From Eubacteriales bacterium (GTDB taxonomy: Bacteria; Bacillota; Clostridia; Oscillospirales; CAG-272): 61,328 nt of DNA. The notes beneath the pieces were generated by a model. That model was given only the letters and a program-made list of their open reading frames with translations, was not told where the DNA came from and did no database searches. The position numbers and the translations under genes were made by a program. Of the stretch, positions 3,434 through 19,592 are shown piece by piece. Where the stretch lies: NCBI GenBank assembly GCA_045636085.1, contig JAZTWU010000122.1, forward strand, positions 1 through 61,328, written 5' to 3'. Position 1 is the stretch's first letter; each line of letters starts with the position of its first letter.

Positions 3434-3472
3434 CAAAAAAGAACGCCCGATGAGGAGCATTCCCCATCGGGC
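3434..3472 (-). terminator. intrinsic terminator after the last gene of the phage-like operon
   Basis: Minus strand reads GCCCGATG-12 nt loop-CATCGGGC followed by GTTCTTTTTTG. Lies between the stop at 3517 and the cysK start. Confidence 0.5.
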
Positions 3473-3516
3473 TCCTCTTTATGACAGAAATATTCTATCA
3501 CACGAGGCATTTAAAG

Positions 3517-4338: not shown

Positions 4339-4693
4339 CACGCATACCCCGTCTGTTTGCTGCGCGCAGGCAAAGCGCGCCGAGCAGGTTGCCGATCAGG
4401 CCGAAAAAGCAGATCATACTCATCTCGGGCGCAATGCTTTGCACGAGGCGGAAAAAGATCAGGCCGAAAAGCCAGAGGCTCCAGATCGCAGGCGAGCGCA
4501 GATAATCCCTCAGCGCGCGCAGAAAGGGGAGCGCGCAGAGCACGCAGAGCAGAAGCGTTCCGCCGGCAATCCTTGCGCCGCCTCCGCGCTCACTCCAGAG
4601 CGGAAAGCAGGAGAGCGTTGCCGCCAAGGGGGTGCCAACGGCGAAAAGATAGCCGAGAGCCTTTAAAAGGCGGCCGCGCTTATTCCGTTTCAT
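4322..4693 (-). CDS. small multi-pass membrane protein (holin-sized, function unverified)
   Basis: 123 aa with 3-4 hydrophobic segments and charged termini. Overlaps both neighbours, which suggests translational coupling. Confidence 0.5.
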   Translation of the reverse strand: MKRNKRGRLLKALGYLFAVGTPLAATLSCFPLWSERGGGARIAGGTLLLCVLCALPFLRALRDYLRSPAIWSLWLFGLIFFRLVQSIAPEMSMICFFGLIGNLLGALCLRAANRRGMRDGKQE

Positions 4694-5300: not shown

Positions 5301-5315
5301 GGTGATTCCTTTCAT

Positions 5316-5711
5316 TCAGAAAATACTGGTGTCTGTGAGGCGTGTCTCAAGGGCTTGGATGCGTCGCTCCAGCGCCTCGACGCGCGCCAAAGAACCCTTC
5401 AGCGCCCGCTCCAGAGCGATGCATTCCTCCTTCCCCGGCGGAAGAAGATGCATGCATCCGCCGCTGATGAGGAAGGGCGGCCCCTCAAAGCGCTTGCCCT
5501 CTGCGAAGAAAACGGGGGTGTGGATGCCCGTTTGAAGCCCGTCCGCAGGAACCTCCGCGCCCTCCGCCGTGAGCGGAAAGCGCCTTGCTCCGATCGTGAG
5601 ATCTCCGGGCACGGGTGTGGTGAGGCGAAAGCGCGCACGGTCACAGCCGAGTCTTTCTGCGCGGATGATCAGCGCTCTTTCTCCCTCAAGCTCAAAAATG
5701 AATTCCTTCAT
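5316..5711 (-). CDS. hypothetical phage-like protein with C-terminal coiled coil
   Basis: 131 aa. ATGA overlap with the upstream gene. Ends LARVEALERRIQALETRL. No family recognised. Confidence 0.5.
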   Translation of the reverse strand: MKEFIFELEGERALIIRAERLGCDRARFRLTTPVPGDLTIGARRFPLTAEGAEVPADGLQTGIHTPVFFAEGKRFEGPPFLISGGCMHLLPPGKEECIALERALKGSLARVEALERRIQALETRLTDTSIF

Positions 5712-5935
5712 CGGAGCATCTCCTCCCGATAACAGATGTAAATGAAGTCCTCGTCCTCCTCGTAGTAAATGGAGAAGGTGGTCGGCGCTTCGCCCTCGGT
5801 GCGCTCCTTGAGCGGCTTATAGCCTGCCGCGCGCAGCTGTTCCTCCGAAGGGTTGGTATAGATCCGCCCGTTCACGGTGAGGTATGGGCGGGTCAGGCAA
5901 TCGATGCGTGTGTCGCTGATTCTTTTTGCGTACAT
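5708..5935 (-). CDS. hypothetical small phage-like protein
   Basis: The ATG at 5933-5935 has AAGGAG 5 nt upstream; the track ORF starts 6 codons earlier. 75 aa. Confidence 0.5.
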   Translation of the reverse strand: MYAKRISDTRIDCLTRPYLTVNGRIYTNPSEEQLRAAGYKPLKERTEGEAPTTFSIYYEEDEDFIYICYREEMLR

Positions 5936-5945
5936 AGCGTCTCCT

Positions 5946-7115
5946 TTAAACATAAGTGAAATACATAATGAAGGGGGAGATCTTCGTCTGCAAATTGAGG
6001 TAATTGTCTCCCTTCACGGTTTTTGGACGAATAGGCTCGAAGCGCTCGATCACGGGCGTTTCGGTCAACCAGAGAAGCTCTGCACCGAGCGATTGGAAGA
6101 GTGTAAGGAAGGATTCGGGCGTTTTGTAGGTGCTCTTCGCCGTGAAATCGATCGCCCTTCCGTCCTCGGTGCGCATTGCCCAGAAGGCGTTGGAGAGGAA
6201 GGAGGATTGGTTTGTGGTCAGTGAAAAGCAGTTGAGTGCAATGGTTTTGTCCCAAAGATCCTCGGGCAGAGCGATGCGATAGGTCGGAAGAGAGGAGCCG
6301 ACATCCACGGCGACGGCCTCCTCTGCTTGGAAGGGGCGGGACATCACGACGCGCTCAACATAGCCCTGCAAGGGGTATGCAATATCGGCAGAGGTGCTCA
6401 TCGTGCGCAGAGGCGCGCTCAGCGAAAAGCTGTAAAACTCGCCCGCGTATGGCTCGAATTCCTCCTCCGTCGGTGTGCCGAAGAAAAAGCCGAAGCTATC
6501 AAGATCCAGCTCGCGGATCGCTCCGCCCGTGGAAACAACGGACATACCGTTGATGCGCTTGGAGCTTGAGCTGCTCGTCAGAAACTGCACCGTTTCGCCG
6601 CCCGTGAAGGTTCCGCTTTTCGTGATCGCCTGTGTGCCGCTGTCGTACTTTATGACGAGACCCGAATTCAGCGAGCTTCCGCTGTACGTGGGGGCACGCA
6701 TGCGAAACATCACCGTGTAAATGACGCCCGATCCGTCACGAAGAAAGCCGTCGGGAAAAAGGGCTACCGTTTTGGTGGAGGAAAAGCGCAAAACGCCTCC
6801 CTCCACCTCGGCGCTCACGGCGCTGTTTTGCGCGGCCACCCGAAGCATCGCCTCGGCCAGCATTTCGCCGCTGACATAATTTCTTTTATGAAAGTGGATC
6901 GGGAAATGATAGCGCCCGTCCTCCCCTGCATCGCCGAGGTAGCTCGTATAGCGGACGCCGCTGGAAAGTGAAGCGGCGCTGGAATACGCACGTATGCCAA
7001 GGCTTATGAGGCCGTTTGCACGGGAGAGGGTAACTCTGTGGCCGGAGCTCATTTGCATCGTCTGCATCGTCGGCGCAGAGGTTGCTCCGAAGAAGCGAAG
7101 CCTGTCAGCAATCAA
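5946..7115 (-). CDS. putative tail fibre / receptor-binding protein
   Basis: 389 aa. TTG start at 7113-7115 with GAGGGGGG 6 nt upstream. Ser/Thr/Gly-rich, beta-type sequence. Assignment rests on its position after the fibre N-terminal-domain gene. Confidence 0.45.
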   Translation of the reverse strand: MIADRLRFFGATSAPTMQTMQMSSGHRVTLSRANGLISLGIRAYSSAASLSSGVRYTSYLGDAGEDGRYHFPIHFHKRNYVSGEMLAEAMLRVAAQNSAVSAEVEGGVLRFSSTKTVALFPDGFLRDGSGVIYTVMFRMRAPTYSGSSLNSGLVIKYDSGTQAITKSGTFTGGETVQFLTSSSSSKRINGMSVVSTGGAIRELDLDSFGFFFGTPTEEEFEPYAGEFYSFSLSAPLRTMSTSADIAYPLQGYVERVVMSRPFQAEEAVAVDVGSSLPTYRIALPEDLWDKTIALNCFSLTTNQSSFLSNAFWAMRTEDGRAIDFTAKSTYKTPESFLTLFQSLGAELLWLTETPVIERFEPIRPKTVKGDNYLNLQTKISPFIMYFTYV

Positions 7116-7581
7116 GCGTAACCCCCCTCACTAGGCCCTGCATTCTTCCGTCGTGCCAGAAGAGAAGGGTATAATGCTTGCCCGCCGCAGGGATAAAGAG
7201 CCCCTCGGCCACGTCATCGCCGCTGAAGTGGATATGCGGCTCTTCGGGATAGGAAAGCTCGGTTGGCGTATCGATCGGGGAATCGAAGCTCAGCGAGGCG
7301 TAATAATCCTCACGAATAAAATCGGGGAAGGATACGGCGATCGCCTCTGCCTCGGAAAAGCGCATATCGTCGCCGTGGCGAAGCAGAGCCTGCGCGCCGT
7401 CACCCTCCTTGACCTCGCCCGTCAGAGAGGAAAGCTCGGAGAAGGGATGCGTGCCGTCGCCGATTTTGATCAACGTGCCGCCTCCGATGCAAAGGAGCGC
7501 CAGCTCTCCCTCTGCGGGAATGATATCTGCCTGCGCCCATTGCTCCCGATCGGCGCGCAGGTGTTGTATGACTTTAGACAT
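7105..7581 (-). CDS. tail fibre protein with HylP/Mtd-type N-terminal domain
   Basis: N-terminus RADREQWAQADIIPAEGELALL...IKIGDGTHPFSELSSLTG follows the pattern R-x-x-x-x-W-x-x-x-D-x-I-x-x-x-G-E...K-x-G-D-G-x-x-x-F-S-x-L seen in phage hyaluronidase/fibre N-termini. GGAGG RBS. Confidence 0.65.
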   Translation of the reverse strand: MSKVIQHLRADREQWAQADIIPAEGELALLCIGGGTLIKIGDGTHPFSELSSLTGEVKEGDGAQALLRHGDDMRFSEAEAIAVSFPDFIREDYYASLSFDSPIDTPTELSYPEEPHIHFSGDDVAEGLFIPAAGKHYTLLFWHDGRMQGLVRGVTLDC

Positions 7582-7591
7582 AAGACCTCCG

Positions 7592-8038
7592 TTATATGGA
7601 ATCGGTTCTTTCCGAGGGGGCGCCGCAGTCCACGTGGAAATTTCCCGTGCCCCGGAAGCTGTCGCCCATCAGAAGAACCAGCGTTTTAAGTGTGCCCTCC
7701 ATTTCGGTGAGCAGGCTGTAAAGAGAGCGCCCGCCGATATCAAGGTAGGTGGAAAGGGCACCGCTTTTCAGATCGTCAAAAAGATTTTTCAGCGTGTGAC
7801 CGCTTTCCAGCCCCGTGGGGATCTCGCTCGCAAGCGAACCCGCGCCCGTGCTCCCAATGTCCGAAAGAAGGGCGTTGAAGCGGCGGATGATCAGCAGAGG
7901 GAGGCGGTCAAAGGCCTCCTTGAGCTGGGTTGCGGTGTAGCCCCTTCCGCCAAAGGCGGAGGAGGCTGTGGGGCGGGAGGGAAGCGCCGCAATGCAAAGC
8001 GGCGCGTATTCGCTCTCTAAGATAGGTTGGGTATTCAT
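7592..8038 (-). CDS. hypothetical virion protein
   Basis: 148 aa, GGAG RBS 6 nt upstream of the ATG at 8036-8038. No family recognised. Confidence 0.5.
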   Translation of the reverse strand: MNTQPILESEYAPLCIAALPSRPTASSAFGGRGYTATQLKEAFDRLPLLIIRRFNALLSDIGSTGAGSLASEIPTGLESGHTLKNLFDDLKSGALSTYLDIGGRSLYSLLTEMEGTLKTLVLLMGDSFRGTGNFHVDCGAPSERTDSI

Positions 8039-8060
8039 AATCGTCTCCGTTTCTCAGAAA

Positions 8061-10775
8061 TTATCGGTTTTTGATTCTTCCCTGCACGGTGAAGCGGTAG
8101 CTCAGCGAATAGATGCCGAAGGGCTCGCGAAAGCCCTCGCTATACACAGCGATTTGCTTTTCGATCCAGTTTTTCTCCTTTTCACGGAAGCTGAGGGTGA
8201 AATAGGGGGAGTTGTCCAGCGTGGTCGCGGAGAAATCCAGCGTGTCAAAGGCAAAGCTTGCGCCGGGAAGAAAAACGCCCTCGCGGTAGCCCGCGCGATC
8301 CGTGCCGACCTCCAAAAGCATAGAGGAGGAGGTATAGGAGCGGCATTTGACGGAGAGCGAGCCCTTCACGGTGCTTTTCGTCAGGTGCGGAATGTCACAG
8401 CAATCGCGCTTGGTTGCCAGCGCATAGCGGGGCGCGTGACGGTCGAAGTCGTAAAAGCTTTCGTGAATGCGCCGTCCGTAGTGAAGCTTGTAATTCTCCT
8501 CGTCGAAGTCGTCGCTCTCCCTGAGCGCCTCGGGGGCTTCACCGCGCTTGTCATTGTTGAAAAGGCAGAGATCTCCGCTTCCCGTTCCGAAGAAGAGAAA
8601 CTGCTCCAAGGCAAGAATGCTTTTTGCGGGGGAGAAATATCCGCCCCGTCTTTGCTCCGTGGGATAAACGAGATAGCGCCGATAGTCCCGCGTGACATAG
8701 TAAACGAGATCCTCGCCGTCACGCACGCTGTAAACGGTTTCGTTTTCCACGACCTCGTCGCGATGCTCGGTGAGAACAAAAAATCCGCTTCTCTCCTCGC
8801 CGCTGAAGCGGTAAACCGTTTCGTCGTCGCGATAAGAGCCGATGCCGTTAAGGTAATACCATTCGTAGGAAAAGCTTCCCGTGGGATGCGAATAGGTCTG
8901 GTGTGCGTCTGCAAGGTAGATGTGCTCGCCTGCGCAAACCACGAGGTAGTTCTGCCATTTTGCCAGTCGGATGCGGCTCATATCCTCTGCAAGCAGACGG
9001 GTGTTGACCGTTTGAGAGCGGCAGGTAACGCTTCTTTGCAGGGAAAGATTCTTTTTGTCCAGCGCGCAGATTCCCTCCTCGCAAACGAAAACGGGATCGT
9101 CAAAGAAGGAGAGGGAGCCTGCGGTGGCCGCAATGCCCGAATGCACATAGCTGACGGGATAGATCTTCGGCAATAGCGGAGAATCGGTGGCCTGCGGCGT
9201 ATGGTAGTAGATACTGCCGCCGCCGTCGTCACCGCTTTTGAAGACCGCAAGCGAGTCCCCTGCCGCCAGCAGGGATTTCACGGGGAAGCCCGCAATGCCA
9301 TCGTTGAAGTAGTTGAGGCTTCCGAAGTAGGTCGGATTCATTCGTCCCGTGTTGTCACGCGCCGAATAGAAAACGGTGTTCGGATAGTCGGGGTTTCCCG
9401 AAAGGAAAACGCGCCCGTCAAAAACCTCGCAAACCGTGCATCCGAGGATCGCCATAAAGCCGCCCTTGTTCTTTCCTTGGTTTTCAAAAAGAAAGTCGTT
9501 GCCCGCTTCGCTCTGATAGCCGAGCTCGTCGAAAATCTCGCCGCTGATCACGGCCTCCTTGCCAACGGTCTCCGTATAGTCGGAGAGGGTGATGTCCAGC
9601 GCGCAAATGATGCCGTCCTTCTGCACGAAGGCGGCAGACCAAGGCGTGTCACCGATGCGAAAATCCGCAATACTCTCGGTCGGCTCGTGCAGAGGAAGGC
9701 GCAGGCGCCTTTCCTTGTATTGGGAGTGCTCGTGTACCGTGGCATTCGCGGGGAAAACGGCGCGCACCGCCTCGGGAAGATCCGCCGTCAAGCCGTCGAT
9801 GTGAATATTCGCAAGTGCGTTGCAGTCGCGCAGGGCATCCTCCGCCGCGCTTTGGAGAGTGGACGGCAGATAGAGTGCGCCGAGCGTGTAGCAATCGGCC
9901 AGAACCTCGGATGCAAGCTCCGTCAGCCCTGCGGGGAGAGCCGCGGTTTTCAGCGTGGTGCATTCCGCAAAGGCGCGCGCCCCGATGTCGCAAACGCCGC
10001 TCGGCAAAACGATGGCGCGGAGCGTTCGATCCTTTTCGAAGGCCGCAGGGGCGACGGAGACAACGGTGTAGTCTATGCCGCCGATGCTTGCCGTTTTCGG
10101 AACGAAGAGCTTTTCGTCCGTGCACCGCCCGCGCCCCGCGAGGCGGCAGGTGAGATCCGCCTCGCTTTCGATCTCGAATTCAAGATCGGGGGAGGTATAG
10201 GCAAAGCGCATCGGATTTTCAAGGCTGTAAATTTCCTTGAAGCCAACGGAGAGAAGATTTCTCTGCTCCATTGGCTCTCCGTTATAAAATGTGGTTGGAA
10301 TGTAAACCCCGCTTTGCTTATATTCGTTTATCGTGACCGTTTTTCCGCTTTCATCCACGATGTGAATGTTCATTCCGTCCAGAATATAAACGGAGCTTCC
10401 GTGGCTGAAGGCCGCGCTTTGCGCAGGGTAAAGCGTGCCGATCGGACTCATAATATCGGGAAGAGAATCCCGGCTTTCGAGCGAAAAACGGTACAGATAA
10501 TGTCCTGCGTGAACGAGGATAAAGCGCCCGCGCGGCGTGGTCTGCGAAAAAATGCCGTAGATCGGATGCTCAAAGGAGCAGAGCTTTCGGAAGCCCGGAA
10601 TGCTTTCCGTGATCCCTGCGCCCTCGCCGTCATAATCGCGATACATATTTTCAAGATAAGCAAAGCGATCTGCCGCGATATTGCTTCCGTCACCCGTGAA
10701 ATCAACGCCGCGCATATCGTGATAGTGGCGGTTATATTGGCTTTTGCTCTGAATCAGATTGTTGGTGTTTTTCAT
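8061..10775 (-). CDS. large tail hub/nozzle-like protein with embedded BspA-type leucine-rich repeats
   Basis: The ATG at 10773-10775 follows AAGGAGG; the track ORF begins at a TTG 6 codons earlier. Beta-propeller-like repeats by eye. The LRR block is VVSVAPAAFEKDRTLRAIVLPSGVCDIGARAFAECTTLKTAALPAGLTELASEVLADCYTLGALYLPSTLQSAAEDALRDC. Confidence 0.6.
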   Translation of the reverse strand: MKNTNNLIQSKSQYNRHYHDMRGVDFTGDGSNIAADRFAYLENMYRDYDGEGAGITESIPGFRKLCSFEHPIYGIFSQTTPRGRFILVHAGHYLYRFSLESRDSLPDIMSPIGTLYPAQSAAFSHGSSVYILDGMNIHIVDESGKTVTINEYKQSGVYIPTTFYNGEPMEQRNLLSVGFKEIYSLENPMRFAYTSPDLEFEIESEADLTCRLAGRGRCTDEKLFVPKTASIGGIDYTVVSVAPAAFEKDRTLRAIVLPSGVCDIGARAFAECTTLKTAALPAGLTELASEVLADCYTLGALYLPSTLQSAAEDALRDCNALANIHIDGLTADLPEAVRAVFPANATVHEHSQYKERRLRLPLHEPTESIADFRIGDTPWSAAFVQKDGIICALDITLSDYTETVGKEAVISGEIFDELGYQSEAGNDFLFENQGKNKGGFMAILGCTVCEVFDGRVFLSGNPDYPNTVFYSARDNTGRMNPTYFGSLNYFNDGIAGFPVKSLLAAGDSLAVFKSGDDGGGSIYYHTPQATDSPLLPKIYPVSYVHSGIAATAGSLSFFDDPVFVCEEGICALDKKNLSLQRSVTCRSQTVNTRLLAEDMSRIRLAKWQNYLVVCAGEHIYLADAHQTYSHPTGSFSYEWYYLNGIGSYRDDETVYRFSGEERSGFFVLTEHRDEVVENETVYSVRDGEDLVYYVTRDYRRYLVYPTEQRRGGYFSPAKSILALEQFLFFGTGSGDLCLFNNDKRGEAPEALRESDDFDEENYKLHYGRRIHESFYDFDRHAPRYALATKRDCCDIPHLTKSTVKGSLSVKCRSYTSSSMLLEVGTDRAGYREGVFLPGASFAFDTLDFSATTLDNSPYFTLSFREKEKNWIEKQIAVYSEGFREPFGIYSLSYRFTVQGRIKNR

Positions 10776-10783
10776 AGGCCTCC

Positions 10784-11626
10784 TTATGCCCAATGATGCG
10801 TGTCAACGATTCCGTCCTCCGCATAGGAGGGGCGGCTGAGACGGATGTCACGCACGCCCTCCATATACATTTGCAGGTAAAACTGCGCCTTCGCCGCATC
10901 GTCGTCCAGCCAGAGATAGGAGGCGGTCAGCAGAGGGAGAAGGTGCGAGAAGGTCGGAGCCATATCGATCGGCGCATCGGGAGAATTTGGATTGATGGCG
11001 CGGGGCAGGCGGCGGTAGGTGAGATGAATCTCGCCCTCGTATTCGCGGGGAATGAAGAAGGTTTCATCGCGAAAATATGCGCCGGGGATCGTGGCGCCCC
11101 CCGCATCGCGGGGGAGCGCCGTAAAGCCGTAAAAGTCCGCCGTCAGCTCTCGCATCGGGTAGGTCTGATAAGGGCGCAGGACGGGAATGTCTTTCTCGGA
11201 GGTGCCGTAGGTGAAGGGAAAGCAGGCGATATCCTTCAGCTGATAGGAAAACTGCCCGCTGAGGATCAACTCGCCCTCCTTATCGGGCAAAAAGCGGCAG
11301 AATTCCATATAAGGCGATTCAAAGAAAAAGGGGGTAACTCTGTGGCGCTCCTTGAGCGTGAAATGGCCTGCCCCCGAAAACTTCATACTGAAGGAGGTTC
11401 CGTGCAGAGGGATGGTGACATCCTCTCCCGGCGTATAAATCACCTCCTCGATCAGAGACGAGGGCTGAATCGCGCGCTGCAGGAGCGTGAGCGTTTCATA
11501 GGAGGGGGAAAGGGCGCTGAGGCTTCGCAGAGCGCGGTTGGCGCAATGAAGCAGGGCGGATTTGTTTTCAATCTCGCTCTCAAAGCCGAGCGCCGCCACC
11601 TCCGAGGTCAATTCGGTATAGGTCAT
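10784..11626 (-). CDS. hypothetical protein in the head-tail adaptor position
   Basis: 280 aa, lying directly after the capsid gene. No motif recognised; the role is inferred from position only. Confidence 0.45.
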   Translation of the reverse strand: MTYTELTSEVAALGFESEIENKSALLHCANRALRSLSALSPSYETLTLLQRAIQPSSLIEEVIYTPGEDVTIPLHGTSFSMKFSGAGHFTLKERHRVTPFFFESPYMEFCRFLPDKEGELILSGQFSYQLKDIACFPFTYGTSEKDIPVLRPYQTYPMRELTADFYGFTALPRDAGGATIPGAYFRDETFFIPREYEGEIHLTYRRLPRAINPNSPDAPIDMAPTFSHLLPLLTASYLWLDDDAAKAQFYLQMYMEGVRDIRLSRPSYAEDGIVDTHHWA

Positions 11627-11633
11627 CGCGGCA

Positions 11634-12686
11634 TCAGAGCGCGGTTGCGTTCGCTACGGCGCTTGCCGAATCCACGGCGAGAAGAATGTGCTTGTAGCTT
11701 CCGAAGCCAACGCCGAAGCGGCAGCGTCCCGCCCAAAGGTAGTTGCCCGTGTGATGGTCAACCCAGTTGGAAACCGAGAGGGGAACGCGGTTGAAGAACA
11801 TATTGCCCGAGAGGTTCTTGTTTGCCTCGGAGGACATGATCATCACGCGGTCGTCCGTGGTCTGCCAGCCGGGAAGAATCACGATGTTCCAGTTGCCGAA
11901 CTGCAGGTTGATATCGTTGTAGCCGTTGCCGAGAGCACCCTCGGAGCCGCAAACCTTCTTTGCAATCATTTCGGCCGCAGGGCGGTTGCCGGGAAGGATC
12001 AGGGTGTCGGCCGTGTAGCCGAGGCTCTCGCCGTTTTCGTCCTTCATATTGCGAAGCTTCACGGAAAGCTCGGAGAGCGCCTGCTCAAAGGCCGCCGTCG
12101 AGAGCTTTCGGTCCGCGCCGGAGGCGAAAATATCGCCCCAGAAGAAATTGGACTGCGTGCCCGTATCCGTGCCGTACTTGTGCGCGGCGGAGAAGAGGGG
12201 AAGGTTGTCCGGTGCGGTCAGATCCAGCGTTGCACCGGAGAAGGCGCCGCTTGCCGCAGTTCCGCTTGCCAGCGCGTATTCGCAGATCTTGTGCATCGTC
12301 TTGTAGTAAGCACGGGTGAAGTTTTCCGCGCGGCGCTTGGCATCGGCGGCAACGCCGTAGCCCGCATCCTCCATCATTTCGGCGGTGATGACGAATTCCT
12401 TCATAAACTGAATGTGCTCGATAAACTTGCGGTAGGTCTCCGTCACGGTATCGCGCTGTGCGCCGTCTCCCTCGGGGGTAGCGGCAAAGACGTCGAATTC
12501 GTTCTGGCCAACGATGGTTTCGCCGAAGCGAGCGCTGCTCTCAACGTTGAAGAGCCAATCGCGGATGCCTCCCTTCTTGGTCAGAATATCGCTCTCGTGC
12601 TCGATCACCATCTTGATGGGAGTTTCGAGCTTTCCAATGGCGGCGTTGTTGGTGCCGACGGATTTGGAGTAAATAATAGTAGACAT
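11634..12686 (-). CDS. major capsid protein (presumed HK97 fold)
   Basis: 350 aa, following the scaffold-like gene and preceding the tail genes. Size, composition and position are typical of a capsid protein. No HMM search was run. Confidence 0.65.
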   Translation of the reverse strand: MSTIIYSKSVGTNNAAIGKLETPIKMVIEHESDILTKKGGIRDWLFNVESSARFGETIVGQNEFDVFAATPEGDGAQRDTVTETYRKFIEHIQFMKEFVITAEMMEDAGYGVAADAKRRAENFTRAYYKTMHKICEYALASGTAASGAFSGATLDLTAPDNLPLFSAAHKYGTDTGTQSNFFWGDIFASGADRKLSTAAFEQALSELSVKLRNMKDENGESLGYTADTLILPGNRPAAEMIAKKVCGSEGALGNGYNDINLQFGNWNIVILPGWQTTDDRVMIMSSEANKNLSGNMFFNRVPLSVSNWVDHHTGNYLWAGRCRFGVGFGSYKHILLAVDSASAVANATAL

Positions 12687-12707
12687 TTTGAAGCAAAAAT
12701 CCTTTCT

Positions 12708-13202
12708 TTAATTGGTTACCTTTTTGAATAAACGGTGGATCTGCGCATCGTCGAGATCCGAGAATAAGCGTCTGGCCTCCGCCATTTCCTCCGCAGAGAG
12801 CGTGGTGGAGCCAAGCGCTCCTATGCGCGGAACGGCGCTTTGCAGATGGGCGCGGTTGTCGCTTCTTTTGCGAGGCGCACCGCCCGTGGCAAGATAAGCC
12901 TCTGCGGGACTGAGGCCGAGCTCTCGCAGCTCGGCATAGCGCACGGGGTTGGGAAGTGCGCCGAGCGATGCAAGCCCCGCGAGAGCGGGAAACTGCGCCT
13001 TCAGCGCCGCAAGATCCTCTTTTGCGATTTTTTCGTAATCCTCCGCGGCGAGTGCGGCTTCCTCCGCCTCTGTTTCGAGGATTTCCTCGGAAGGCGCCGC
13101 GGTTTCCTCGGAGAAGGTCTCCGCTTCGCCTTCAATCTTCAGTTCTGCGGCGGCGAGGGGCTCGTCCGCTCTTTCGCCGTTTTCAAGAAGCGTCTCGTCC
13201 AT
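12708..13202 (-). CDS. scaffolding protein (acidic, helical)
   Basis: 164 aa, Glu/Ala-rich (EAEEAALAAEDYEKIAKEDLAALKAQF), immediately upstream of the capsid gene. Confidence 0.55.
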   Translation of the reverse strand: MDETLLENGERADEPLAAAELKIEGEAETFSEETAAPSEEILETEAEEAALAAEDYEKIAKEDLAALKAQFPALAGLASLGALPNPVRYAELRELGLSPAEAYLATGGAPRKRSDNRAHLQSAVPRIGALGSTTLSAEEMAEARRLFSDLDDAQIHRLFKKVTN

Positions 13203-13205
13203 AGA

Positions 13206-13343
13206 TCAGCCCTTCTTTCTCTTGGAGCGCAGATCGTCTCCCACGGTCTTGGTTACGCGGGGCTCGCCTGCGGTGATATTGTTCGGGGCACAGATCCTTC
13301 CGCCCTTGTTGGTTGCATAGGTGGATTGTCTTTCCTTTTTCAT
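13206..13343 (-). CDS. small basic protein (45 aa), absent from the ORF track
   Basis: My translation is MKKERQSTYATNKGGRICAPNNITAGEPRVTKTVGDDLRSKRKKG. AAAGGAA lies 5 nt upstream of the ATG at 13341-13343. It fills the gap between two operon genes. Confidence 0.35.
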   Translation of the reverse strand: MKKERQSTYATNKGGRICAPNNITAGEPRVTKTVGDDLRSKRKKG

Positions 13344-13367
13344 AGCAGTTCCTTTCATTCGTAAAAA

Positions 13368-14018
13368 TTAATTCGTTTTGTCAAAGATTTGAGGCACGGT
13401 GGTTCCTCCGATTACCTGCGCGTATTTGCCGAAGCGCTCGACCTCCTCCTCCGAGAAGCCAAGGGAGCGCGCATAGCCCTCCACTCGAACTCTCGAAAGC
13501 CTTTGCTCAAGGATCATTTCAAGCAGGCGCGAGGCGGCTCTCTGCTTTGCCGCGACAACGCCGAGCTCGGCGGCAACCCTTGCGTTTTCCTCCGTCAGGC
13601 CTCCTGCGATCGCCTTGTTAAAGGCGCTTTCAAGATCAAAGCTTCCGTCACTTTCAATGCTGTCGATCATTTGCATGCGAAGGCGATCCTGCCTGTCCTC
13701 GTGCGAGGTCAGGTATTTTGCATAGCCCGCAAGGTTTTTCTCCTTCACGGCGGCATTGTCCGATGCGTATTTCTGCTTTGCGGCGGAGAAGCTGCGATCG
13801 GCCTCGTTGGCAAGAAAACGCGCGTAGCCGCTGCTCTGCAAGCCCCTTTCGGAGAGCCATTCCGCATTTTTGCCGTAGGTCGGTGCGCTTTTTGCGCGTG
13901 CGGTTGCCGCCGCATCGGGCGTCACGGTGTTCGTATTTGCCGTTCCGTGCTTGCGGATCCAGGCGGCAAAGCTGCTCGGCTCGTTTTCCTTCTTCTTTTT
14001 CGTGAGCAAATCCGTCAT
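13368..14018 (-). CDS. hypothetical head-associated protein
   Basis: 216 aa. Its ATG overlaps the portal stop (ATGA at 14015-14018). No family recognised. Confidence 0.5.
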   Translation of the reverse strand: MTDLLTKKKKENEPSSFAAWIRKHGTANTNTVTPDAAATARAKSAPTYGKNAEWLSERGLQSSGYARFLANEADRSFSAAKQKYASDNAAVKEKNLAGYAKYLTSHEDRQDRLRMQMIDSIESDGSFDLESAFNKAIAGGLTEENARVAAELGVVAAKQRAASRLLEMILEQRLSRVRVEGYARSLGFSEEEVERFGKYAQVIGGTTVPQIFDKTN

Positions 14019-15784
14019 CCGATCACCTCCTCACCGATATCTCGTTGCATTGCTTCCTCTCGCACGGCACCACGGAAATATTCCACATTCTCCCTTGCGT
14101 ACGGGTAATGTGCGCGCTCCTGACTTTGCCAGTAGCGCAGAAGGGTGGCACTCCTCGAAGGATCGCCCAGCGCGCCACTACGCAGATTTTCCAGATTCTT
14201 TTGCCAAAGAACCTCTCTTTGCGCCTCTGCGCCTCCGTTAAGATCCACGGAAAAGAGAAAATCGTCGTCGTAATAAAGCGTGCCGCTTCCCTCGTCGCAG
14301 AGAATGAAGTCGTAGCGGTTGAAGGTCGCGTTGTGCATACGGCCGAAGGCATCGGTATAAGAGATCTGCCTCGGCTCGTCCGCAAAGGAAAGATGATGCT
14401 CAAAGATCAGTCGGTCGATCTCGGCATAGGCCGTGTATTTCATCTTGCGCTTGGATTCGAGGCGCCCCGAGGCCTGCGAGATCTGCAGGCTTCTTGCATA
14501 GCCGGATTCGTTTCGGCTGTTGTCAATGCCGACGAGCGCATCGGAAATACCGAGAATGCGCTTGGCCTGATCGTAAAGGCGGGTGGCCTCCGCGATGTCC
14601 TGTGAAATGTCGGGGGTGGTATCCACCTTGCCGTATTGCGCCGCGCTTTCGCCGGGCTTCATCTTGATCATCTGGCCGAAAACCGAGTTGTTGAGGGTGA
14701 TGGTGGCATCCTCGGGAACCACGGGGGTAACGCCGGCGCGCAGAAGCTTTTGCAGAATGCGGGATTCGATCTTGTTGATCGCCTGCTGCTGCGGGCGGAT
14801 GATCTCGCAGTCCGAGGCGCCGAAAAGGCTTCCCTCCAGCGAGGTGTTTCTTCGGATCACGATGGGGAAGCGCTTGGGCGTATAATAGGGAACGCTGATG
14901 CCTCCGTCCTCCTGCTCCGAGGGGGAAAAGATTTTCGTTCCGTCCGAAAGCTCTGTGACTTGCAGATGCTCCTCGCTCTGGTTTTGCAGAGTGAACTGCG
15001 GATGCTCGCAAAGGCAGTTTTGCTCCTCGCTGTGGCAAGCGGAGCAGAATCTCCGCTTTCTGGCGTAGTAATCGGGAATGTCTGTCAGCGTAAGCTCGCC
15101 CGAAAATGCGTATTCACCGATTCTGCCGTCCGTGTCGCGATAAAAGCAAAGGATCACGGTTGCGCCCTCCTCCGCCTCTCCCTCGTAGGTCTCGCTGTCC
15201 CATTCTCTTTCGGCCAGAGAAAGCGCCTCCGCCGAAACACCCCATTTGCGCATAAGCTCGGCCTTCGTCGTGTCAAAGCGCAAAAAGCAGTAGTCCATAT
15301 CCTCAATGGTACGCGCGCCCGGCTGAGGGATGAAGTCCTTCGGGGAAAGGCAATGCACGGAAACGCCGCCGATGCGGTTGCCAAGCCCCTCGTGGCTATC
15401 CCATTCCACGAACCAGACGCTTCCGCCGTATATGTAGCTGTATCGCTCGTCGAGGTCGTTCATTTGCTCGTAGGGGAGCTTTTCGCGCACCGCGGAAAGC
15501 AGGCGCTCCACGCTCTGCGCAAGGCGAAGCTTCTTTTCGCTGTAAGCCGTCGGATCCACCTTCGGGGGCGGGATGTGGGAGGAGACCTGACTCTCGATCA
15601 TCTCGTAGGTGATGTTGCGCACGGTCAGCGCCTTCTCGGTGGAGCCGTCGATCTCGGTCGTTCCGCGATATTGCCGCATATGGCGGTCAAAGAGCGTGCG
15701 CCCCTCTGCGGCCGCATTCCTGCTCTTTTGGTAAAGCGAGGAAAAATAAGCGAGCCGCTCGGATTTTGTTTTGTTTTGTGTCAT
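14015..15784 (-). CDS. portal protein
   Basis: Starts MTQNKTKSERLAYFSSLYQK at the ATG 15782-15784, overlapping the terL stop. 589 aa, directly after the large terminase. The first ~200 codons of track ORF 14015..16387 are an out-of-frame overlap with terL. Confidence 0.8.
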   Translation of the reverse strand: MTQNKTKSERLAYFSSLYQKSRNAAAEGRTLFDRHMRQYRGTTEIDGSTEKALTVRNITYEMIESQVSSHIPPPKVDPTAYSEKKLRLAQSVERLLSAVREKLPYEQMNDLDERYSYIYGGSVWFVEWDSHEGLGNRIGGVSVHCLSPKDFIPQPGARTIEDMDYCFLRFDTTKAELMRKWGVSAEALSLAEREWDSETYEGEAEEGATVILCFYRDTDGRIGEYAFSGELTLTDIPDYYARKRRFCSACHSEEQNCLCEHPQFTLQNQSEEHLQVTELSDGTKIFSPSEQEDGGISVPYYTPKRFPIVIRRNTSLEGSLFGASDCEIIRPQQQAINKIESRILQKLLRAGVTPVVPEDATITLNNSVFGQMIKMKPGESAAQYGKVDTTPDISQDIAEATRLYDQAKRILGISDALVGIDNSRNESGYARSLQISQASGRLESKRKMKYTAYAEIDRLIFEHHLSFADEPRQISYTDAFGRMHNATFNRYDFILCDEGSGTLYYDDDFLFSVDLNGGAEAQREVLWQKNLENLRSGALGDPSRSATLLRYWQSQERAHYPYARENVEYFRGAVREEAMQRDIGEEVIG

Positions 15785-17145
15785 AAGGGTTCTCCGTATT
15801 TGCGTTTTAGATATTGCCTTCCTTCCTCGTCGGCGGCGAAATAGTCCTCCCACATATCGGCGCTCCAGGGCCGTCCGTGCCGCTCCGTGGGGACGGGGGC
15901 GGGGCGGGTGAAATAAACGGCGAAGCCGCGCAGAGCATCGGGGGCATGCGTAATATCGTGCGGCTCGGTGGCGCAGTCGCTGGGGCGGTGCTTGTCTATT
16001 TGCAGGGCGGGAAGGCAACGGATCAGCTCGGTGCAGTGCGAAAAAATGGAGAGCATCGGGGCGCCGTCCTTTTCCCTCAGAAGCTCCTTCAGGCAGAGCC
16101 AGCCGGCCTCGCGGTTGTTGGAGCTCTTCGTGAAGGGAATGCCATAGGAGGCAAAAAGGGTGGCCTTGCTTTTTCCGCTTTCCTGACTGCGGCTGAAAAG
16201 ATCGGGGGGCGCGAGCGTTGCATAGATCTGCTCGTGCGGCGGCGTGTGCGATAGAATTTCGGCGGCCGCCTCGCCGATGGGGAGATCCGAGATGCAAAGC
16301 TCTCGGTAAACGTAGGCTCGTCCCTCCGGGCTCACGGCGATCCATAGGCAGGCGAGACGGTCCAGCCCATAATCCACCGTGCGCCATTTTCTCCAGCCGC
16401 TCGGAATTTCGAAGGGTGCACAGGTATGCTTTGCCGCTGAAAATTCGGAAAAATACTGCCCGTCGAAAATATTCCAGTCGCCATAGAGGAGCGCCTTTTG
16501 CTCCTTTTCGGGAAGCGAGAGAAGCCGCTTTTTATAGTCGGGATCTCCTTCGCTGAGAAAGCGGTTGTCCGAAAGAAGAGAGGGGAGAAAGATCCGCGAG
16601 AGCCCGTCCGATCCCGAGAAGGGGGTCTCGGGAGGCGAGGGGTCAACGAAGCGCGCCTTCACCCATCCGTGCCCGATCCCGCCGGGATTGGTGGAGGACT
16701 TGATCTGCTTCGGAAAGGCGTTTGCCCCGCGAACGCGTGAGATGAGATACAGATACTGTGCCTCGGTGAAATGCGTCAGCTCGTCGAAGCGAACGATATC
16801 GTATTCCGCGCTCTGGTATTGGTAAACGTCGTTTTCTGCCGCGCAGTAGCCAAAGTCGATGCAGGAGCCGTTTTTGAATCGGCCGAGGTGGGCGGTCGAA
16901 TTGAAACGGTAGATCTCCCTTGGGAAAAGCGCCAGTGAGGTGCGGATCAGGGATTTTTCCAGCTCTGCAAAGCTTCTTCGGAGAATCAGCTGCTTGGAGC
17001 CGGGATAGAGGAGCGCCGTTGTCAGCGCATCCACAAGCTGGCCATAGGACTTGCCGCCGCCCGCCGCGCCGCCGAATAAAACCTCGGTTGCGGTGGCATC
17101 CATAAAGGCCTTCTGCTTTTTTGTGAGCGTGAGATGCAGCTTCAA
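15781..17145 (-). CDS. terminase large subunit
   Basis: Walker A GGAAGGGKS near the N-terminus and a C-terminal nuclease-type region. TTG start at 17143-17145 with GGAGG 7 nt upstream, overlapping the terS stop. Confidence 0.85.
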   Translation of the reverse strand: MKLHLTLTKKQKAFMDATATEVLFGGAAGGGKSYGQLVDALTTALLYPGSKQLILRRSFAELEKSLIRTSLALFPREIYRFNSTAHLGRFKNGSCIDFGYCAAENDVYQYQSAEYDIVRFDELTHFTEAQYLYLISRVRGANAFPKQIKSSTNPGGIGHGWVKARFVDPSPPETPFSGSDGLSRIFLPSLLSDNRFLSEGDPDYKKRLLSLPEKEQKALLYGDWNIFDGQYFSEFSAAKHTCAPFEIPSGWRKWRTVDYGLDRLACLWIAVSPEGRAYVYRELCISDLPIGEAAAEILSHTPPHEQIYATLAPPDLFSRSQESGKSKATLFASYGIPFTKSSNNREAGWLCLKELLREKDGAPMLSIFSHCTELIRCLPALQIDKHRPSDCATEPHDITHAPDALRGFAVYFTRPAPVPTERHGRPWSADMWEDYFAADEEGRQYLKRKYGEPL

Positions 17146-17477
17146 GAGAGCACCTCCAGCGTCACCGAAAGAGAGGAATCCTCCCCGTCCTGTCCGTTTT
17201 CGCTCTCGTCATCCAGAAGGTACTTGACGAAGGAGGCGTCAAACCGCTTTGTCAGTGCTCGGTCAATCAGGTAATCCCTGCGGATTTCACCGCATTCGCG
17301 GATGGCGCGCTCAAAGTCCTTGTGCCCTTTGAAGGCGAGAAGCTGTTCGGTTGTGTATCCCTGCGATCGGGCGAATTTGTGAAGGCTGGGGGCGCTCTTC
17401 TCATCGTCGTAGCAGGCGAAAAAGCTATATAGCCGTCTCGGAAGATCGCGCTCGTAGGCGCGCTTTTTCGTTTTCAA
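17142..17477 (-). CDS. terminase small subunit (start uncertain: TTG 17477 with strong RBS, or GTG 17525)
   Basis: Basic N-terminus, an HTH-like core (SLHKFARSQGYTTEQLLAF) and an acidic tail. AAAGGAGAA lies 7 nt upstream of the TTG at 17475-17477. Confidence 0.65.
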   Translation of the reverse strand: MKTKKRAYERDLPRRLYSFFACYDDEKSAPSLHKFARSQGYTTEQLLAFKGHKDFERAIRECGEIRRDYLIDRALTKRFDASFVKYLLDDESENGQDGEDSSLSVTLEVLS

Positions 17478-17527
17478 GGAGGTTCTCCTTTCTTTCGTTT
17501 TTCGAGAGCTTTGCCTCTCGTGCACTT

Positions 17528-17586
17528 AGTATACCAAAGAATTTTTTTTCCGTAAGTATAGTGCATTTCCAAAAATCACCTATCAA
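17528..17586 (-). promoter_or_regulatory. candidate promoters of the phage-like operon
   Basis: On the minus strand, TTGATA (17581-17586) is followed by CACTAT at 17 nt or TATACT (17555-17560) at 20 nt. A second, extended -10 TGgTATACT lies at 17528-17536. Confidence 0.4.
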
Positions 17587-17595
17587 GTGACTTTT
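17571..17595. promoter_or_regulatory. palindromic operator copy A: AAAAATCAC-CTATCAA-GTGACTTTT
   Basis: Both 9-nt half-sites and the 7-nt spacing are identical to the site at 54552-54576. The flanking tcc and the downstream tttgtg are also shared. Confidence 0.6.
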
Positions 17596-17613
17596 TTATT
17601 TGTGAAAGAGCAA

Positions 17614-17646
17614 CAAAAAAAGCCCACCGAGAAGGCCTCGGTGGGC
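17614..17646 (-). terminator. intrinsic terminator of the ABC-F gene
   Basis: Perfect 10-bp stem GCCCACCGAG/CTCGGTGGGC with a 5-nt loop, followed on the minus strand by TTTTTTT. Confidence 0.75.
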
Positions 17647-17675
17647 AAAATAGGGGTAAAACGGATAAATTTTTT

Positions 17676-19592
17676 TTACATTGTGAGCTCGTAAAGAGAA
17701 AGAAGCTCCTCCTCAATCTCGCTCTTTCTTTTGTCGATTTCTGCCGCGCGCAGATAATCGCTTGCCGCCTCGCCGAAAAGCTCCTCCTCCAGCGCCTCAA
17801 GCTCCTTTTCGAGCGCCTCGATCTTCTCCTTGGCGCGCTCAAGCTTCTTTTGCTCTCCGCGCTTTTTTGCGGCCTCCTTCTTCTTTTGCTCGTATTCCTC
17901 CTTGCCTGTGCTGATCTGCACGGGCTGAGCCTGCATCGCGTGGCTTTCGCGCTTTTCCTTGAGCTTCAGATATTCCGTATAGGCATCGTCGTATTCCTCA
18001 AGTCGGTAGTCGAGCATACCGCGCTCCGTATGCGGATCCAGCTCGATGATGCGCGTGGCCAGGCGATTGATAAAGTAGCGGTCGTGCGAAACGGCAACGA
18101 TCGTGCCGTCAAAGGCGAGGAGCGCGTTTTCCAGCGCCTCGGCAGAGCCGATATCCAGGTGGTTGGTCGGCTCGTCCATCACGAGCAGGTTCACCTTTTT
18201 GAGAATGAGCTTTGCAAGCGTCAGTCTTGCGCGCTCACCGCCCGAAAGCACCTTCACGCTCTTGTCGATATCCTCTGCGCCGAAGAGAAAGAGCGCCAGC
18301 GCCGAGCGAAGCTCAAGATCCGTCATCAACGGATAGCTTTCCCGCATTTCGGAAAAAACCGTATTGTGCTCGCCAAGACCGCGGTTTTCCTGATCGTAGT
18401 AGCCGATCTTGATATTGTATCCAAGCTCCACACGGCCGCCCTGCGGCACAAGCCGACCGTTGATGATCTTCATCAGCGTGGATTTTCCCGATCCGTTCGG
18501 GCCGAGGAAAAGTGTTCTCTCTCCCTTTTCTATTAAGAAGGAAAGATTTTCGATCAGCGGCGCGCCGCCGTAGGAAAAGCAAAGCTCCTTCGCCTCAATG
18601 ACGTGCCCTGTGCTCTCGCTCTCGGAAAGAAAGCGCATACGGATCTCCTTCTCGGGCCCCTTGGGCTTTTCAATCTTTTCCATTCTGGCGAGCTGCTTTT
18701 CCTTGGAGCGGATGGTCACGAAATTGTGCTCGCGGTTGCATCTGCGCTGAAATTCGATATTCTTGCGGATGCGCTCGATCTCCTTTTGCTGCTCCTTATA
18801 GCGCTTTTCGAGCGAGGCGCGCTCGGCCTCCATCTGGAGCTTGGCCTTAGAATAATTCCCGAAAAAGATTTTGGCAACGCCGTCCTGGATCTGCATCGTC
18901 TTCTCCGTGGTGCGGTCAAGGAAATAGCGGTCGTGCGAGATGATCAGCACGGTTTTCTTATAGCCTGCAAGATAGCCCTCCAGCCAAGCAAGGGCATCAA
19001 GGTCGAGATGGTTGGTCGGCTCGTCAAGCATCAGCACGTCCGGCTCGGTGGCCAGAAGGCGCGCAAGCGAGAGTCTCGTATACTGTCCGCCCGAAAGGGT
19101 GGAGATGGTTTGCGAAAGCTGTGCCTCCGAAAAGCCGAGGCGCAGAAGCATTCCTCTTGCGCGGGAGCGGAATTCAAGTCCGCCCTCATTTGCAAAGCGC
19201 GTGTTGAGCGCCGAGAGGCGGGCGGAAAGCGCATTCACCTCGTCGTGCCCTGCCACGGTCAGCGCGTGGGAGGTTGCCTCGATCTCCTCCTCCAAGGCGA
19301 GAAGGGCGGGGAAGGCGGTGATCATATATTGCTCCATCGTCATATTTCCGGGGAGTGCCGTGAGGTCGGCGTTTTGCTCAAGAACGCCAACCGTATAGCC
19401 CTTGCGCAGGCTCACAGTGCCCTGATCGGGGGTGTATTGTCCCGAAAGCAGGCGGAAGAGCGAGGTTTTTCCTGCGCCGTTGGTGCCAACGATGCCGATA
19501 TGCTCGCCGTCCTGTGCGGCGAAGGTGATATCCTTCAATATTATATTATCCCCGAAGGAGAGGGAGAGGGAGGATGCGGAAATTGCGATCAT
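17676..19592 (-). CDS. ABC-F family ATPase (EttA/Uup-like translation factor type)
   Basis: Two ABC cassettes (Walker A GTNGAGKTS and GPNGSGKST; signatures LSGGQ and LSGGE), no TM domain, Lys/Glu-rich coiled-coil tail. Confidence 0.9.
   Translation of the reverse strand: MIAISASSLSLSFGDNIILKDITFAAQDGEHIGIVGTNGAGKTSLFRLLSGQYTPDQGTVSLRKGYTVGVLEQNADLTALPGNMTMEQYMITAFPALLALEEEIEATSHALTVAGHDEVNALSARLSALNTRFANEGGLEFRSRARGMLLRLGFSEAQLSQTISTLSGGQYTRLSLARLLATEPDVLMLDEPTNHLDLDALAWLEGYLAGYKKTVLIISHDRYFLDRTTEKTMQIQDGVAKIFFGNYSKAKLQMEAERASLEKRYKEQQKEIERIRKNIEFQRRCNREHNFVTIRSKEKQLARMEKIEKPKGPEKEIRMRFLSESESTGHVIEAKELCFSYGGAPLIENLSFLIEKGERTLFLGPNGSGKSTLMKIINGRLVPQGGRVELGYNIKIGYYDQENRGLGEHNTVFSEMRESYPLMTDLELRSALALFLFGAEDIDKSVKVLSGGERARLTLAKLILKKVNLLVMDEPTNHLDIGSAEALENALLAFDGTIVAVSHDRYFINRLATRIIELDPHTERGMLDYRLEEYDDAYTEYLKLKEKRESHAMQAQPVQISTGKEEYEQKKKEAAKKRGEQKKLERAKEKIEALEKELEALEEELFGEAASDYLRAAEIDKRKSEIEEELLSLYELTM

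Follow-up and report, generated by a model that had tools for sequence, protein, structure and literature searches.

A shared inverted-repeat operator may place a distant phage-like structural operon under a CI-like XRE/S24 repressor in a gut Clostridia genome

The complete 61,328-nt NCBI contig JAZTWU010000122.1 (assembly GCA_045636085.1) of an Eubacteriales bacterium, hereafter the window, carries a 14-kb phage-like structural operon headed by a terS-like terminase gene (3517-17477, minus strand) and, 37 kb away, a regulatory module (locus B) in which an XRE/S24 repressor gene stands divergent to two small open reading frames (ORFs), ORF1 and ORF2. Both loci contain the same 25-bp dyad, and the reading that we favor, with moderate confidence, is a repressor-to-activator-to-operon cascade spanning these two loci, with an optional direct repressive arm at terS. 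The dyad would be the operator of the CI-like XRE/S24 repressor encoded at 53846-54457, which, by binding operator O1 at the -35 element and operator O2 at the likely transcription start, would shut the divergent ORF1-ORF2 promoter. DNA damage acting via RecA would inactivate the repressor by self-cleavage, and ORF2 would in turn switch on the conserved terS promoter that drives the structural operon. In the window lineage, the operator upstream of terS would give the repressor a direct second lock, which would probably block an activator or an upstream RNA polymerase contact and not the -35 element. An earlier reading of this DNA (the original prediction) had proposed a shared operator and trans control of a phage-like target, which are retained here; it missed the activator step through ORF2.

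Copy A of the dyad (O_T, 17571-17595, no strand assigned) reads AAAAATCAC-CTATCAA-GTGACTTTT and lies upstream of the terS promoter, being AAAAGTCAC-TTGATAG-GTGATTTTT when read in the terS direction. Copy B (O1, 54552-54576, likewise without strand) reads AAAAATCAC-TTGACAA-GTGACTTTT and overlaps the -35 element TTGACA of the ORF1-ORF2 promoter. These two 25-mers, with identical 9-nt half-sites and a 7-nt spacer, were located exactly where the original prediction had put them. The half-sites are reverse complements of each other at 8/9 positions, the exception being position 5 (A versus G). Between the copies, identity stretches as far as tccAAAAATCAC and CAAGTGACTTTT, and a TTTGTG lies beyond each of them, 4 and 2 nt away, respectively. 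Within the spacers, TTGACA occupies 54561-54566 in copy B, and TTGATA is found on the minus strand at 17586-17581 in copy A. The original prediction did not mention that the copies share the same (+) orientation and that each stands 94-95 nt upstream of a minus-strand start codon, namely the TTG of terS at 17477 and the ATG of the repressor gene at 54457.

The pattern AAAAATCAC-N7-GTGACTTTT had only these two matches in the window, even when up to 3 mismatches were allowed, against a mean of 0.06 expected by chance in 100 shuffles, none of which reached 4 strand-hits. The assertion that a chance match was very unlikely was thus borne out. The shorter core TCAC-N7-GTGA with at most 1 mismatch gave 27 window matches against 22.6 in shuffles, and the right flanking context was present in only three of the 27, at 17575, 54556 and 54592. 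The last of these, identified by this core scan, is a third dyad with the sequence AGTCAC-GCATCAG-GTTAC.

An exact-pattern scan of 185,579 representative genomes returned 115 loci. The layout of locus B (repressor, ORF1, ORF2 and spoIIA) was found in 24 of them, with repressors 56-67% and ORF2 proteins 41-52% identical to those of the window. Three were terS loci (L028, L068 and L072), five had an O1/O2-type promoter before a lone ORF2-like gene with no adjacent repressor (L016, L030, L080, L083 and L111), one (L093) had a promoter of this kind before a Y-family DNA polymerase gene, and approximately 80 were unrelated A-tract/T-tract hairpins. L028 (terS) and L062 (repressor locus) belong to the same metagenome-assembled genome (MAG), the only representative MAG with both loci, where each contributes one exact copy of the motif and the genome has exactly two; the motif is therefore not scattered in this genome as a generic repeat would be. 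Conservation in related genomes, which the original prediction had proposed to check, was seen at both ends of the circuit, as the locus-B layout in 24 representative species and as the terS dyad in 15 of 44 promoters.

Three further regions were fetched by protein similarity and are unbiased with respect to the motif. L250 has an exact O1, an O2 and a full third dyad in the repressor leader, L248 has an O1 with 1 mismatch, and L249, which shares a 124-kb contig with L248, carries the dyad ahead of terS within the same synteny of ABC-F gene, operon and PALP-family gene. The recurrence of this synteny in another genome (L248/L249) fits the earlier proposal that a phage-like operon lying among core genes would be controlled in trans. 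Altogether, the comparison supported the identification of the 25-bp dyad as a conserved protein-binding operator and not a generic repeat.

The gene order in locus B is repressor (minus strand), then ORF1, ORF2, spoIIAA, spoIIAB and sigF (plus strand), with ORF1 and ORF2 overlapping at a TGATG junction. ORF1 (54656-54943, plus strand) encodes an acidic protein of 95 aa, and ORF2 (54943-55329, plus strand) encodes 128 aa of a small basic family, a candidate for an Ltr-type late-operon activator. The promoter scan called TTGACA-18-TATCAT with TG (11/12) as the ORF1-ORF2 promoter, with an extended -10 TGGTATCAT (54582-54590, plus strand) kept among the orthologous loci as tg.TA.aAT. Operator O2, GTCAC-GCATCAG-GTTAC (54592-54608, no strand), lies directly after this -10, over the likely transcription start. 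In the orthologous loci, the O1 spacer reads TTGACAA in 23/27 and TTGACAG in 4/27, so that TTGACA is invariant, and O2 is kept as agTCaCg.aAca.gttact in 27 aligned loci. The spacer TTGACA, the extended -10 and O2 are thus conserved even though they fall outside the search pattern. A repressor-proximal block, TTGCAT-17-TATACT (54493-54521, minus strand), includes an AAGTGAC half-site at 54506-54512 and may combine the repressor promoter with an autoregulatory site. As a repressor promoter, TTGCAT-17-TATACT is only a tentative candidate, as TTGCAT agrees with TTGACA at just 3/6 positions and the promoter scan did not call it.

The repressor (53846-54457, minus strand, 203 aa) matched HTH_3 at its N-terminus (Pfam, 1.3e-13), Peptidase_S24 at its C-terminus (Pfam, 4.2e-24) and the transcriptional repressor family phrog_4 of PHROGs (2.1e-37). 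Across 23 orthologues that are otherwise approximately 60% identical, the recognition helix GTSKQTIHRYE is invariant, as are GDSM and ATLKR, which hold the Ser/Lys dyad. The Cys-Gly of GRIACGKP, the predicted self-cleavage site, is kept in at least 80% of them. Cys-Gly is the cleavage site of UmuD, and LexA and lambda CI use Ala-Gly. The protein therefore has the traits of a self-cleaving repressor of the CI/LexA type, that is, a helix-turn-helix (HTH), an S24 domain with Ser/Lys dyad and Cys-Gly, and dyads over a divergent promoter. With an intact autoprotease and cleavage site, it should be inactivated by DNA damage through RecA. An assignment to LexA proper was rejected, since an HTH_3 domain stands in place of the LexA winged helix at the N-terminus, and TIGR00498, the model for LexA, scored 87.5 bits against a cutoff of 110.95 and aligned only to residues 76-197. 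Some sources label homologues of the repressor 'repressor LexA'.

Evidence about which protein binds the dyad was provided by viral contigs, which were scanned with the looser pattern ATCAC-TTGACRN-GTGAC (the exact 25-mer had 0 matches in them). Four temperate-phage switch regions (L256, L264, L276 and L282) were found, in the order integrase, HTH repressor, dyad promoter (with -35, extended -10 and second dyad) and cro-like gene. Their repressors matched a hidden Markov model (HMM) of the window repressor HTH at E 1e-27 to 1e-30, and no ORF2-family gene was found near the four regions. The dyad thus sits beside a homologous HTH in phages that have no ORF2, which suggests that it travels with this HTH, the strongest available argument for the XRE/S24 protein, and not ORF1 or ORF2, as the binder. 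Additionally, the invariant recognition helix and the repressing positions of O1 and O2 make the XRE/S24 repressor the best candidate. Every fetched repressor locus had the same operator type, including that on a 123,976-nt contig, and no case of co-variation, in which a terS promoter and a repressor locus share a different dyad, was found among them. Altogether, these observations suggested that the XRE/S24 repressor is most likely the protein that binds the dyad. As the shared regulator named in the original prediction, it thus remains the best candidate, and occlusion of the -35 element by O1 fits at locus B; the same mechanism did not hold at terS, as described below.

The step from the repressor to the structural operon would run through ORF2. 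Its family comprises 223 clusters at 50% identity, most of them of approximately 105-115 aa, with a median isoelectric point (pI) of 9.15; the conserved core of ORF2 has a pI of 9.17. With an ORF2-family HMM, members were located immediately ahead of terS-terL in five phage-like contigs (L124-127 and L176); L126, for example, has its ORF2-like gene at 4987-5322, terS at 5536 and terL at 5992. Ltr late activators are small, basic and CI-controlled proteins that are encoded before terS and bind repeats upstream of it (PMC3753634). The ORF2 family consists of small basic proteins whose gene stands directly before terS in phage relatives and, in locus B, downstream of the operator, which fits the Ltr description. 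The operator positions imply that ORF2 expression would be under CI-type repressor control, and ORF2 is probably a late-activator-like intermediate.

The AlphaFold model of ORF2 is all-helical (predicted local distance difference test score 83.6), and its top match in a viral structure library was a 'Transcriptional activator' (probability 0.98, TM-score 0.57, E 0.44); a library of solved structures gave nothing. Among 41 family members searched, Pfam gave no match, and the ArpU model TIGR01637, the only NCBIfam family matched by more than one member, was reached weakly by 2/41 at E 0.02. With PHROGs, phrog_248 'transcriptional activator' was matched by 1/41 at 0.036 and phrog_11237, to which no function is assigned, by 6/41. 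ORF1 belongs to a fast-evolving, helical family of approximately 100 aa that is present in every locus of the locus-B type, always between the operator and ORF2.

The target of the proposed activator was characterized in 44 terS upstream regions, obtained from 37 metagenome and 3 viral contigs by protein-based scans and from the window, L068, L072 and L249. The shared order is a terminator, a TGTGCA-N3-TGCACA repeat, a variable stretch of approximately 25 nt, TTTGGAAgg, 8 nt, aTACTTACa, 17-18 nt and TGnTAtAAT, the two boxes having the consensus TTTGgAAgg....taTACTTACa over the 44 promoters and the -10 keeping its distance from TACTTAC in the terS orthologues. In the window, where all these elements lie on the minus strand, the terminator is that of the co-directional upstream ABC-F gene (17622-17646, 11-bp stem with 8 GC pairs and a T-run), which folds at -21.5 kcal/mol (z -6.6) and is predicted to insulate the terS promoter. 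It is followed by the degenerate inverted repeat TGTTGCTCTTTCACA (17601-17615, 4 mismatches), the boxes TTGGAA (17572-17567, overlapping the T-run of the operator) and TACTTAC (17558-17552), which together span 17552-17572, and the extended -10 TGGTATACT (17528-17536) of the likely terS promoter, with a probable start near 17521. The two boxes are unique in the window, with 0 expected, and TACTTAC contains a -35-like CTTACG. The TGTGCA-N3-TGCACA repeat was found with at most 3 mismatches in 37/44 promoters, mostly 56-58 nt upstream of TACTTAC, and could be the site at which ORF2 binds as an activator. Promoters of the sigma E, F, G, K and H types, whose consensuses were compared by eye, did not fit the TACTTAC and -10 boxes, and Rfam gave nothing above threshold on 17000-18000. 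In the terS leader (17497-17527, minus strand), a hairpin CACGAGAGG-CAAAG-CTCTCG is present in the close relatives of the window, and TTGCCGAtG directly follows the -10 in most leaders of other elements.

The dyad, as GTCAC-N7-GTGAT/C, occupies the variable stretch of this architecture in the 15 promoters mentioned above, 33 +/- 2 nt upstream of TACTTAC. The other 29/44 have at least 3 mismatches to the dyad and retain the conserved boxes. The original prediction had taken the minus-strand TTGATA of copy A for the -35 element of terS, occluded by the operator, and this part was not upheld. The N7 spacer at terS varies between orthologues (CTATCAA, CCGATAA, CTGTTAA, GCAACGG and others), so that TTGATA is not a conserved -35; additionally, the nearest TATACT is 20 nt away, and the promoter scan called no sigma-70-type promoter in the terS region. 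The operator instead spans about -50 to -74 from the likely terS start, with its center near -62, and overlaps the TTTGGAA box. From this position, the terS dyad would act by anti-activation or by blocking upstream RNA polymerase contact rather than by -35 occlusion.

A different promoter design was seen in a distant, GC-rich clade (L243, L245 and L247, terS 36% identical), in which a dyad of the same type follows immediately on the -10 of the terS promoter, over the likely start. In L245 (1580-1860), TGCTATAAT plus AGTCACGCAACAGGTGA stand before terS and cover the likely start, and a GTCAC-TTGACGC-GTGAC dyad occurs upstream of them at approximately 120 nt. The group may correspond to the clade of L016, L030, L080, L083 and L111, the loci with a lone ORF2-like gene behind an O1/O2 promoter. 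In L213, L221, L225, L229, L236 and L239, other palindromes were found at the place of the dyad, such as TTCGGCG-GCT-CGCCGAA, CTCGC-GGG-CGAG and AGGGGG-TAAT-CCCCCT. The dyad place in terS promoters may therefore be an exchangeable operator position, although no repressors corresponding to these palindromes came to light.

Several observations weigh against the cascade as proposed. The dyad was present in only 15/44 related terS promoters, so that direct control of terS is not general, and its place upstream of the -35-like box would be unusual for simple repression, a center at -62 being also suited to an activator. ORF2, on which the model relies for its second step, had no significant match to a named family in Pfam, PHROGs, NCBIfam, solved structures or viral structures. 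The 24 locus-B loci were picked by exact half-site match, and the conservation of their half-sites is thus partly built in. Finally, the promoter at L093 may mean that the repressor is a broader damage-response regulator and not a dedicated regulator of a gene transfer agent (GTA).

This last point leads to a tenable minority possibility, namely that the repressor is a general host damage-response regulator (HdiR-like, or a LexA substitute) with a wider regulon, a reading that overlaps with the cascade and differs from it in scope. The O1-type promoter that drives a 499-aa Y-family DNA polymerase at L093, the fixed syntenic chromosomal position of the repressor gene in at least 26 species and the 'repressor LexA' label of some homologues would agree with it, whereas only 3 dyads in the 61-kb window, two exact copies in one representative MAG, the HTH_3 N-terminus in place of a LexA winged helix and the below-cutoff LexA score speak against it. 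That the same protein activates at terS in a class-I-type manner, as lambda CI does at P_RM, is very unlikely. The dyad does lie approximately 50-74 nt upstream of the likely start, before a weak -35-like box and in a region with no sigma-70 consensus promoter, but an operon of lytic particles that is on while uninduced and off after cleavage would be lethal or pointless, 29/44 orthologous promoters without the dyad keep the other boxes, and the distant clade has the dyad over the terS start, a repressing position.

Very unlikely too, and if anything slightly less probable, is binding of the dyad by ORF2 or ORF1, with ORF2 repressing its own promoter and activating terS from about -62. Such binding could account for ORF2 being the most constant gene downstream of the O1/O2 promoter, including five loci without an adjacent repressor, and for the activator-like distance of the terS dyad. 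It is contradicted by the four phage switch regions, where dyad, HTH repressor and cro-like gene occur with no ORF2-family gene, and by the phage relatives with ORF2 beside terS, which have no such dyad. O1 and O2 are in purely repressive positions, and ORF2 is 41-52% identical though the operator is unchanged, whereas the repressor recognition helix is invariant. Finally, the inverted repeat could be an RNA hairpin (a weak minus-strand terminator or insulator) or a chance or generic repeat, which is barely plausible. On the minus strand the copies fold with a G-U pair (-8.8 and -12.2 kcal/mol, z approximately -4) ahead of a T-run, the terminator scan flagged copy B, and approximately 80/115 genome-scan matches were unrelated A-tract/T-tract hairpins. 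These folds are nevertheless much less stable than the genuine terminator located 30 nt from the dyad (-21.5 kcal/mol), no minus-strand gene upstream at locus B is there to be terminated, and the spacer at locus B contains an invariant -35 with an extended -10 behind it. A T-run is absent from O2 and the phage dyads, the half-sites are kept as the loop varies freely with no compensatory changes seen, and the chance expectation is 0.06.

The operon that would be controlled by the cascade begins with the terS-like gene (17142-17477, minus strand), which has a TTG start and the ribosome-binding site GGAGAA and encodes 111 aa with a weak match to phrog_3064 terminase (E 1.7e-4). The protein had no Pfam match (searched as a longer ORF of 127 aa) and no NCBIfam match; its gene lies directly before terL, and the aligned orthologues show 53-79% identity. 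The rest of the operon (3517-17145, minus strand) includes terL (15781-17145), a portal gene (14015 to approximately 15790) with weak, below-cutoff SU10/P22 portal matches, the major capsid protein gene (11634-12686, Phage_capsid_4), the gene of a 280-aa protein (10784-11626) whose orthologue in L249 has a weak SU10-adaptor match, the gene of a 910-aa LRR_5 protein with BspA-type leucine-rich repeats (8061-10793) and a small membrane protein gene (4322-4693), all on the minus strand, along with approximately 8 ORFs without assigned function. The LRR_5 protein is a candidate for the receptor-binding or fiber protein of the particle; it is kept in L249 (904 aa). No integrase, replication, regulator or recognizable endolysin genes were found in 3517-17477 among the Pfam, PHROGs and NCBIfam matches, and the 274-aa product of the last gene had no match among solved structures.

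The operon is flanked by the ABC-F gene and a PALP-family enzyme gene. L249 has the same layout of ABC-F, 17 genes and PALP, and the ABC-F gene is also adjacent in L068 and L072. The capsid protein has 1788 homologues, of which the best 120 are all 77-96% identical, some of them on chromosomal contigs of up to 359 kb, and relatives with a terL approximately 55% identical are found in viral contigs of approximately 40 kb. The distance between the regulatory module and the operon is 37 kb in the window and approximately 40 kb in JAZPDR010000033.1. With packaging and structural genes but no recognized replication, integration or regulatory genes, placed among core genes at a position conserved across species and with its regulators at a separate locus, the 14-kb operon would best be described as a domesticated element, GTA-like and of podovirus type. 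This probable GTA is present in many Clostridia of the gut that have not been cultured. The G+C content is approximately 0.57 in the operon and its left flank (1-18000) and falls to approximately 0.48-0.52 at 19-24 kb. In a viral contig of 10.8 kb (L269, IMGVR_UViG_3300035520_001239), the gene of a 184-aa repressor and O1 are followed by an ORF1-like gene, an ORF of 101 aa and an ORF2-like gene. Beyond these come genes for a small-membrane-protein homologue, a protein of 942 aa and a portal that shares 66% identity with the window portal. This arrangement may be an intermediate between a phage and the split chromosomal form.

Comparable logic is known from Caulobacter crescentus, in which RogA, a protein with an HTH and an S24-like domain, represses GafYZ, the activators of the GTA cluster (PMC9632790). 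As in that system, a repressor would act on inverted repeats in the promoter of a separate activator, which would activate a structural cluster at another locus. RogA has no catalytic residues, whereas the window repressor keeps GDSM, Lys and Cys-Gly, and the two have no sequence relationship; the activator family of the window is likewise unrelated to GafYZ, single-gene and possibly assisted by ORF1. The circuit thus looks like an independent re-invention of the RogA-GafYZ logic.

The CI-type operator, the basic activator and the terS repeats would also resemble those of Gram-positive temperate phages, in which CI and the Ltr proteins RinA and ArpU are described (PMC3152322, PMC3753634). In contrast to those phages, the window regulators lie 37 kb from the operon, next to spoIIA, and the element carries no replication or integration genes. 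Ltr phages in the literature have been siphoviruses; the window portal and adaptor instead gave matches of podovirus type (SU10/P22), and ORF2 is not significant against the RinA or ArpU models.

The podovirus-type genes of FpGTA of Faecalibacterium (terS, terL and those of the portal, scaffold and capsid protein) are conserved across species and arranged in operons of 10.5 kb and 5.5 kb at distant loci; its TerS shows no evident DNA-binding domain, and no regulation of FpGTA was described (PMC12946183). The likeness to the window is limited to gene order and podovirus-type features, both occurring in gut Oscillospirales-type Clostridia, and the window differs in having one 14-kb operon. Packaging of random host DNA in the manner of a GTA was reported to be common among Ruminococcaceae, Oscillospiraceae and Christensenellaceae of the gut, and podovirus-like GTA particles along with such packaging were reported for Faecalibacterium, Oscillospiraceae and Christensenellaceae; most of these groups were not assigned a gene cluster, and a regulator was described for none (PMC12946183). 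Within the literature searched, FpGTA was mentioned only by that study (PMC12946183).

Compared with these systems, a catalytically intact S24 domain, the extra operator at the structural promoter in some lineages, an unnamed activator family and the linkage to spoIIA are distinctive. The defective, SOS-inducible phage-like particle element PBSX of Bacillus subtilis is also related in logic, as Xre binds several operators at a divergent promoter and the late operon depends on a separate positive factor, Xpf. PBSX differs in encoding these regulators inside the element, in an Xre that lacks an S24 domain, in the sigma-like nature of Xpf and in its myovirus-like particles. DNA binding by Xre is the subject of a study cited in PMC4243946. 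The logic of Xre and Xpf, compared by description only, matches that of the window circuit. HdiR of streptococci and lactococci combines an XRE HTH with a self-cleaving S24 domain and controls damage-inducible genes, including a Y-family polymerase; by description, its operator differs from the dyad, and HdiR is not known to be linked to a phage-particle operon.

The locus offers a concrete circuit composed of a cleavable repressor, an operator sequence, an unannotated candidate activator family of 223 clusters and a terS promoter architecture, and these parts could allow GTA production to be predicted and induced in uncultured or hard-to-grow gut anaerobes. The variable operator position in terS promoters additionally suggests relevance for the way in which hosts control domesticated phages.

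In at least 26 species, the repressor-ORF1-ORF2 module immediately precedes spoIIAA-spoIIAB-sigF, and a terminator-like site was found in 0/3 of the ORF2-spoIIAA gaps inspected (window 55329-55379, L248:4456-4550 and L250:10360-10500). Since the module adjoins the sigF operon with no terminator found, a de-repressed promoter could read through into it, and, if the proposed circuit is true, de-repression could feed transcription into the operon of the first forespore sigma factor (spoIIA, sigma-F). A still broader proposal, that the XRE/S24 protein, fixed beside spoIIA throughout a broad clade of uncultured gut Clostridia, is the master switch of a widespread podovirus-type GTA through ORF2 and ORF1, also controls damage genes and couples DNA damage, GTA release and sporulation entry, is distinctly unlikely. 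The gap in the window also holds a TTTGACA, which we take to resemble a Spo0A box.

Some of the loci from the genome scan lie outside the two layouts. In the Streptococcus salivarius/vestibularis group, a conserved AAAAAATCACGCCAGGCGTGACTTTTT hairpin at one orthologous site (L011, L012, L017, L022, L027, L046, L050, L066, L073, L075, L105 and L107) is an apparent intrinsic terminator and a coincidental match to the pattern. L060 (Ruthenibacterium), where an exact motif and a terL 39% identical lie approximately 1.7 kb apart, was assigned to no class. At L093 (4722-6294, MAG JAZKYE010000049.1), AAAAATCAC-TTGACGC-GTGACTTTT and then TGGTATAAT precede the gene of the 499-aa Y-family DNA polymerase, with a further GTTAC-N7-GGTGA dyad upstream, in a context of chromosomal cell-wall-polysaccharide genes.

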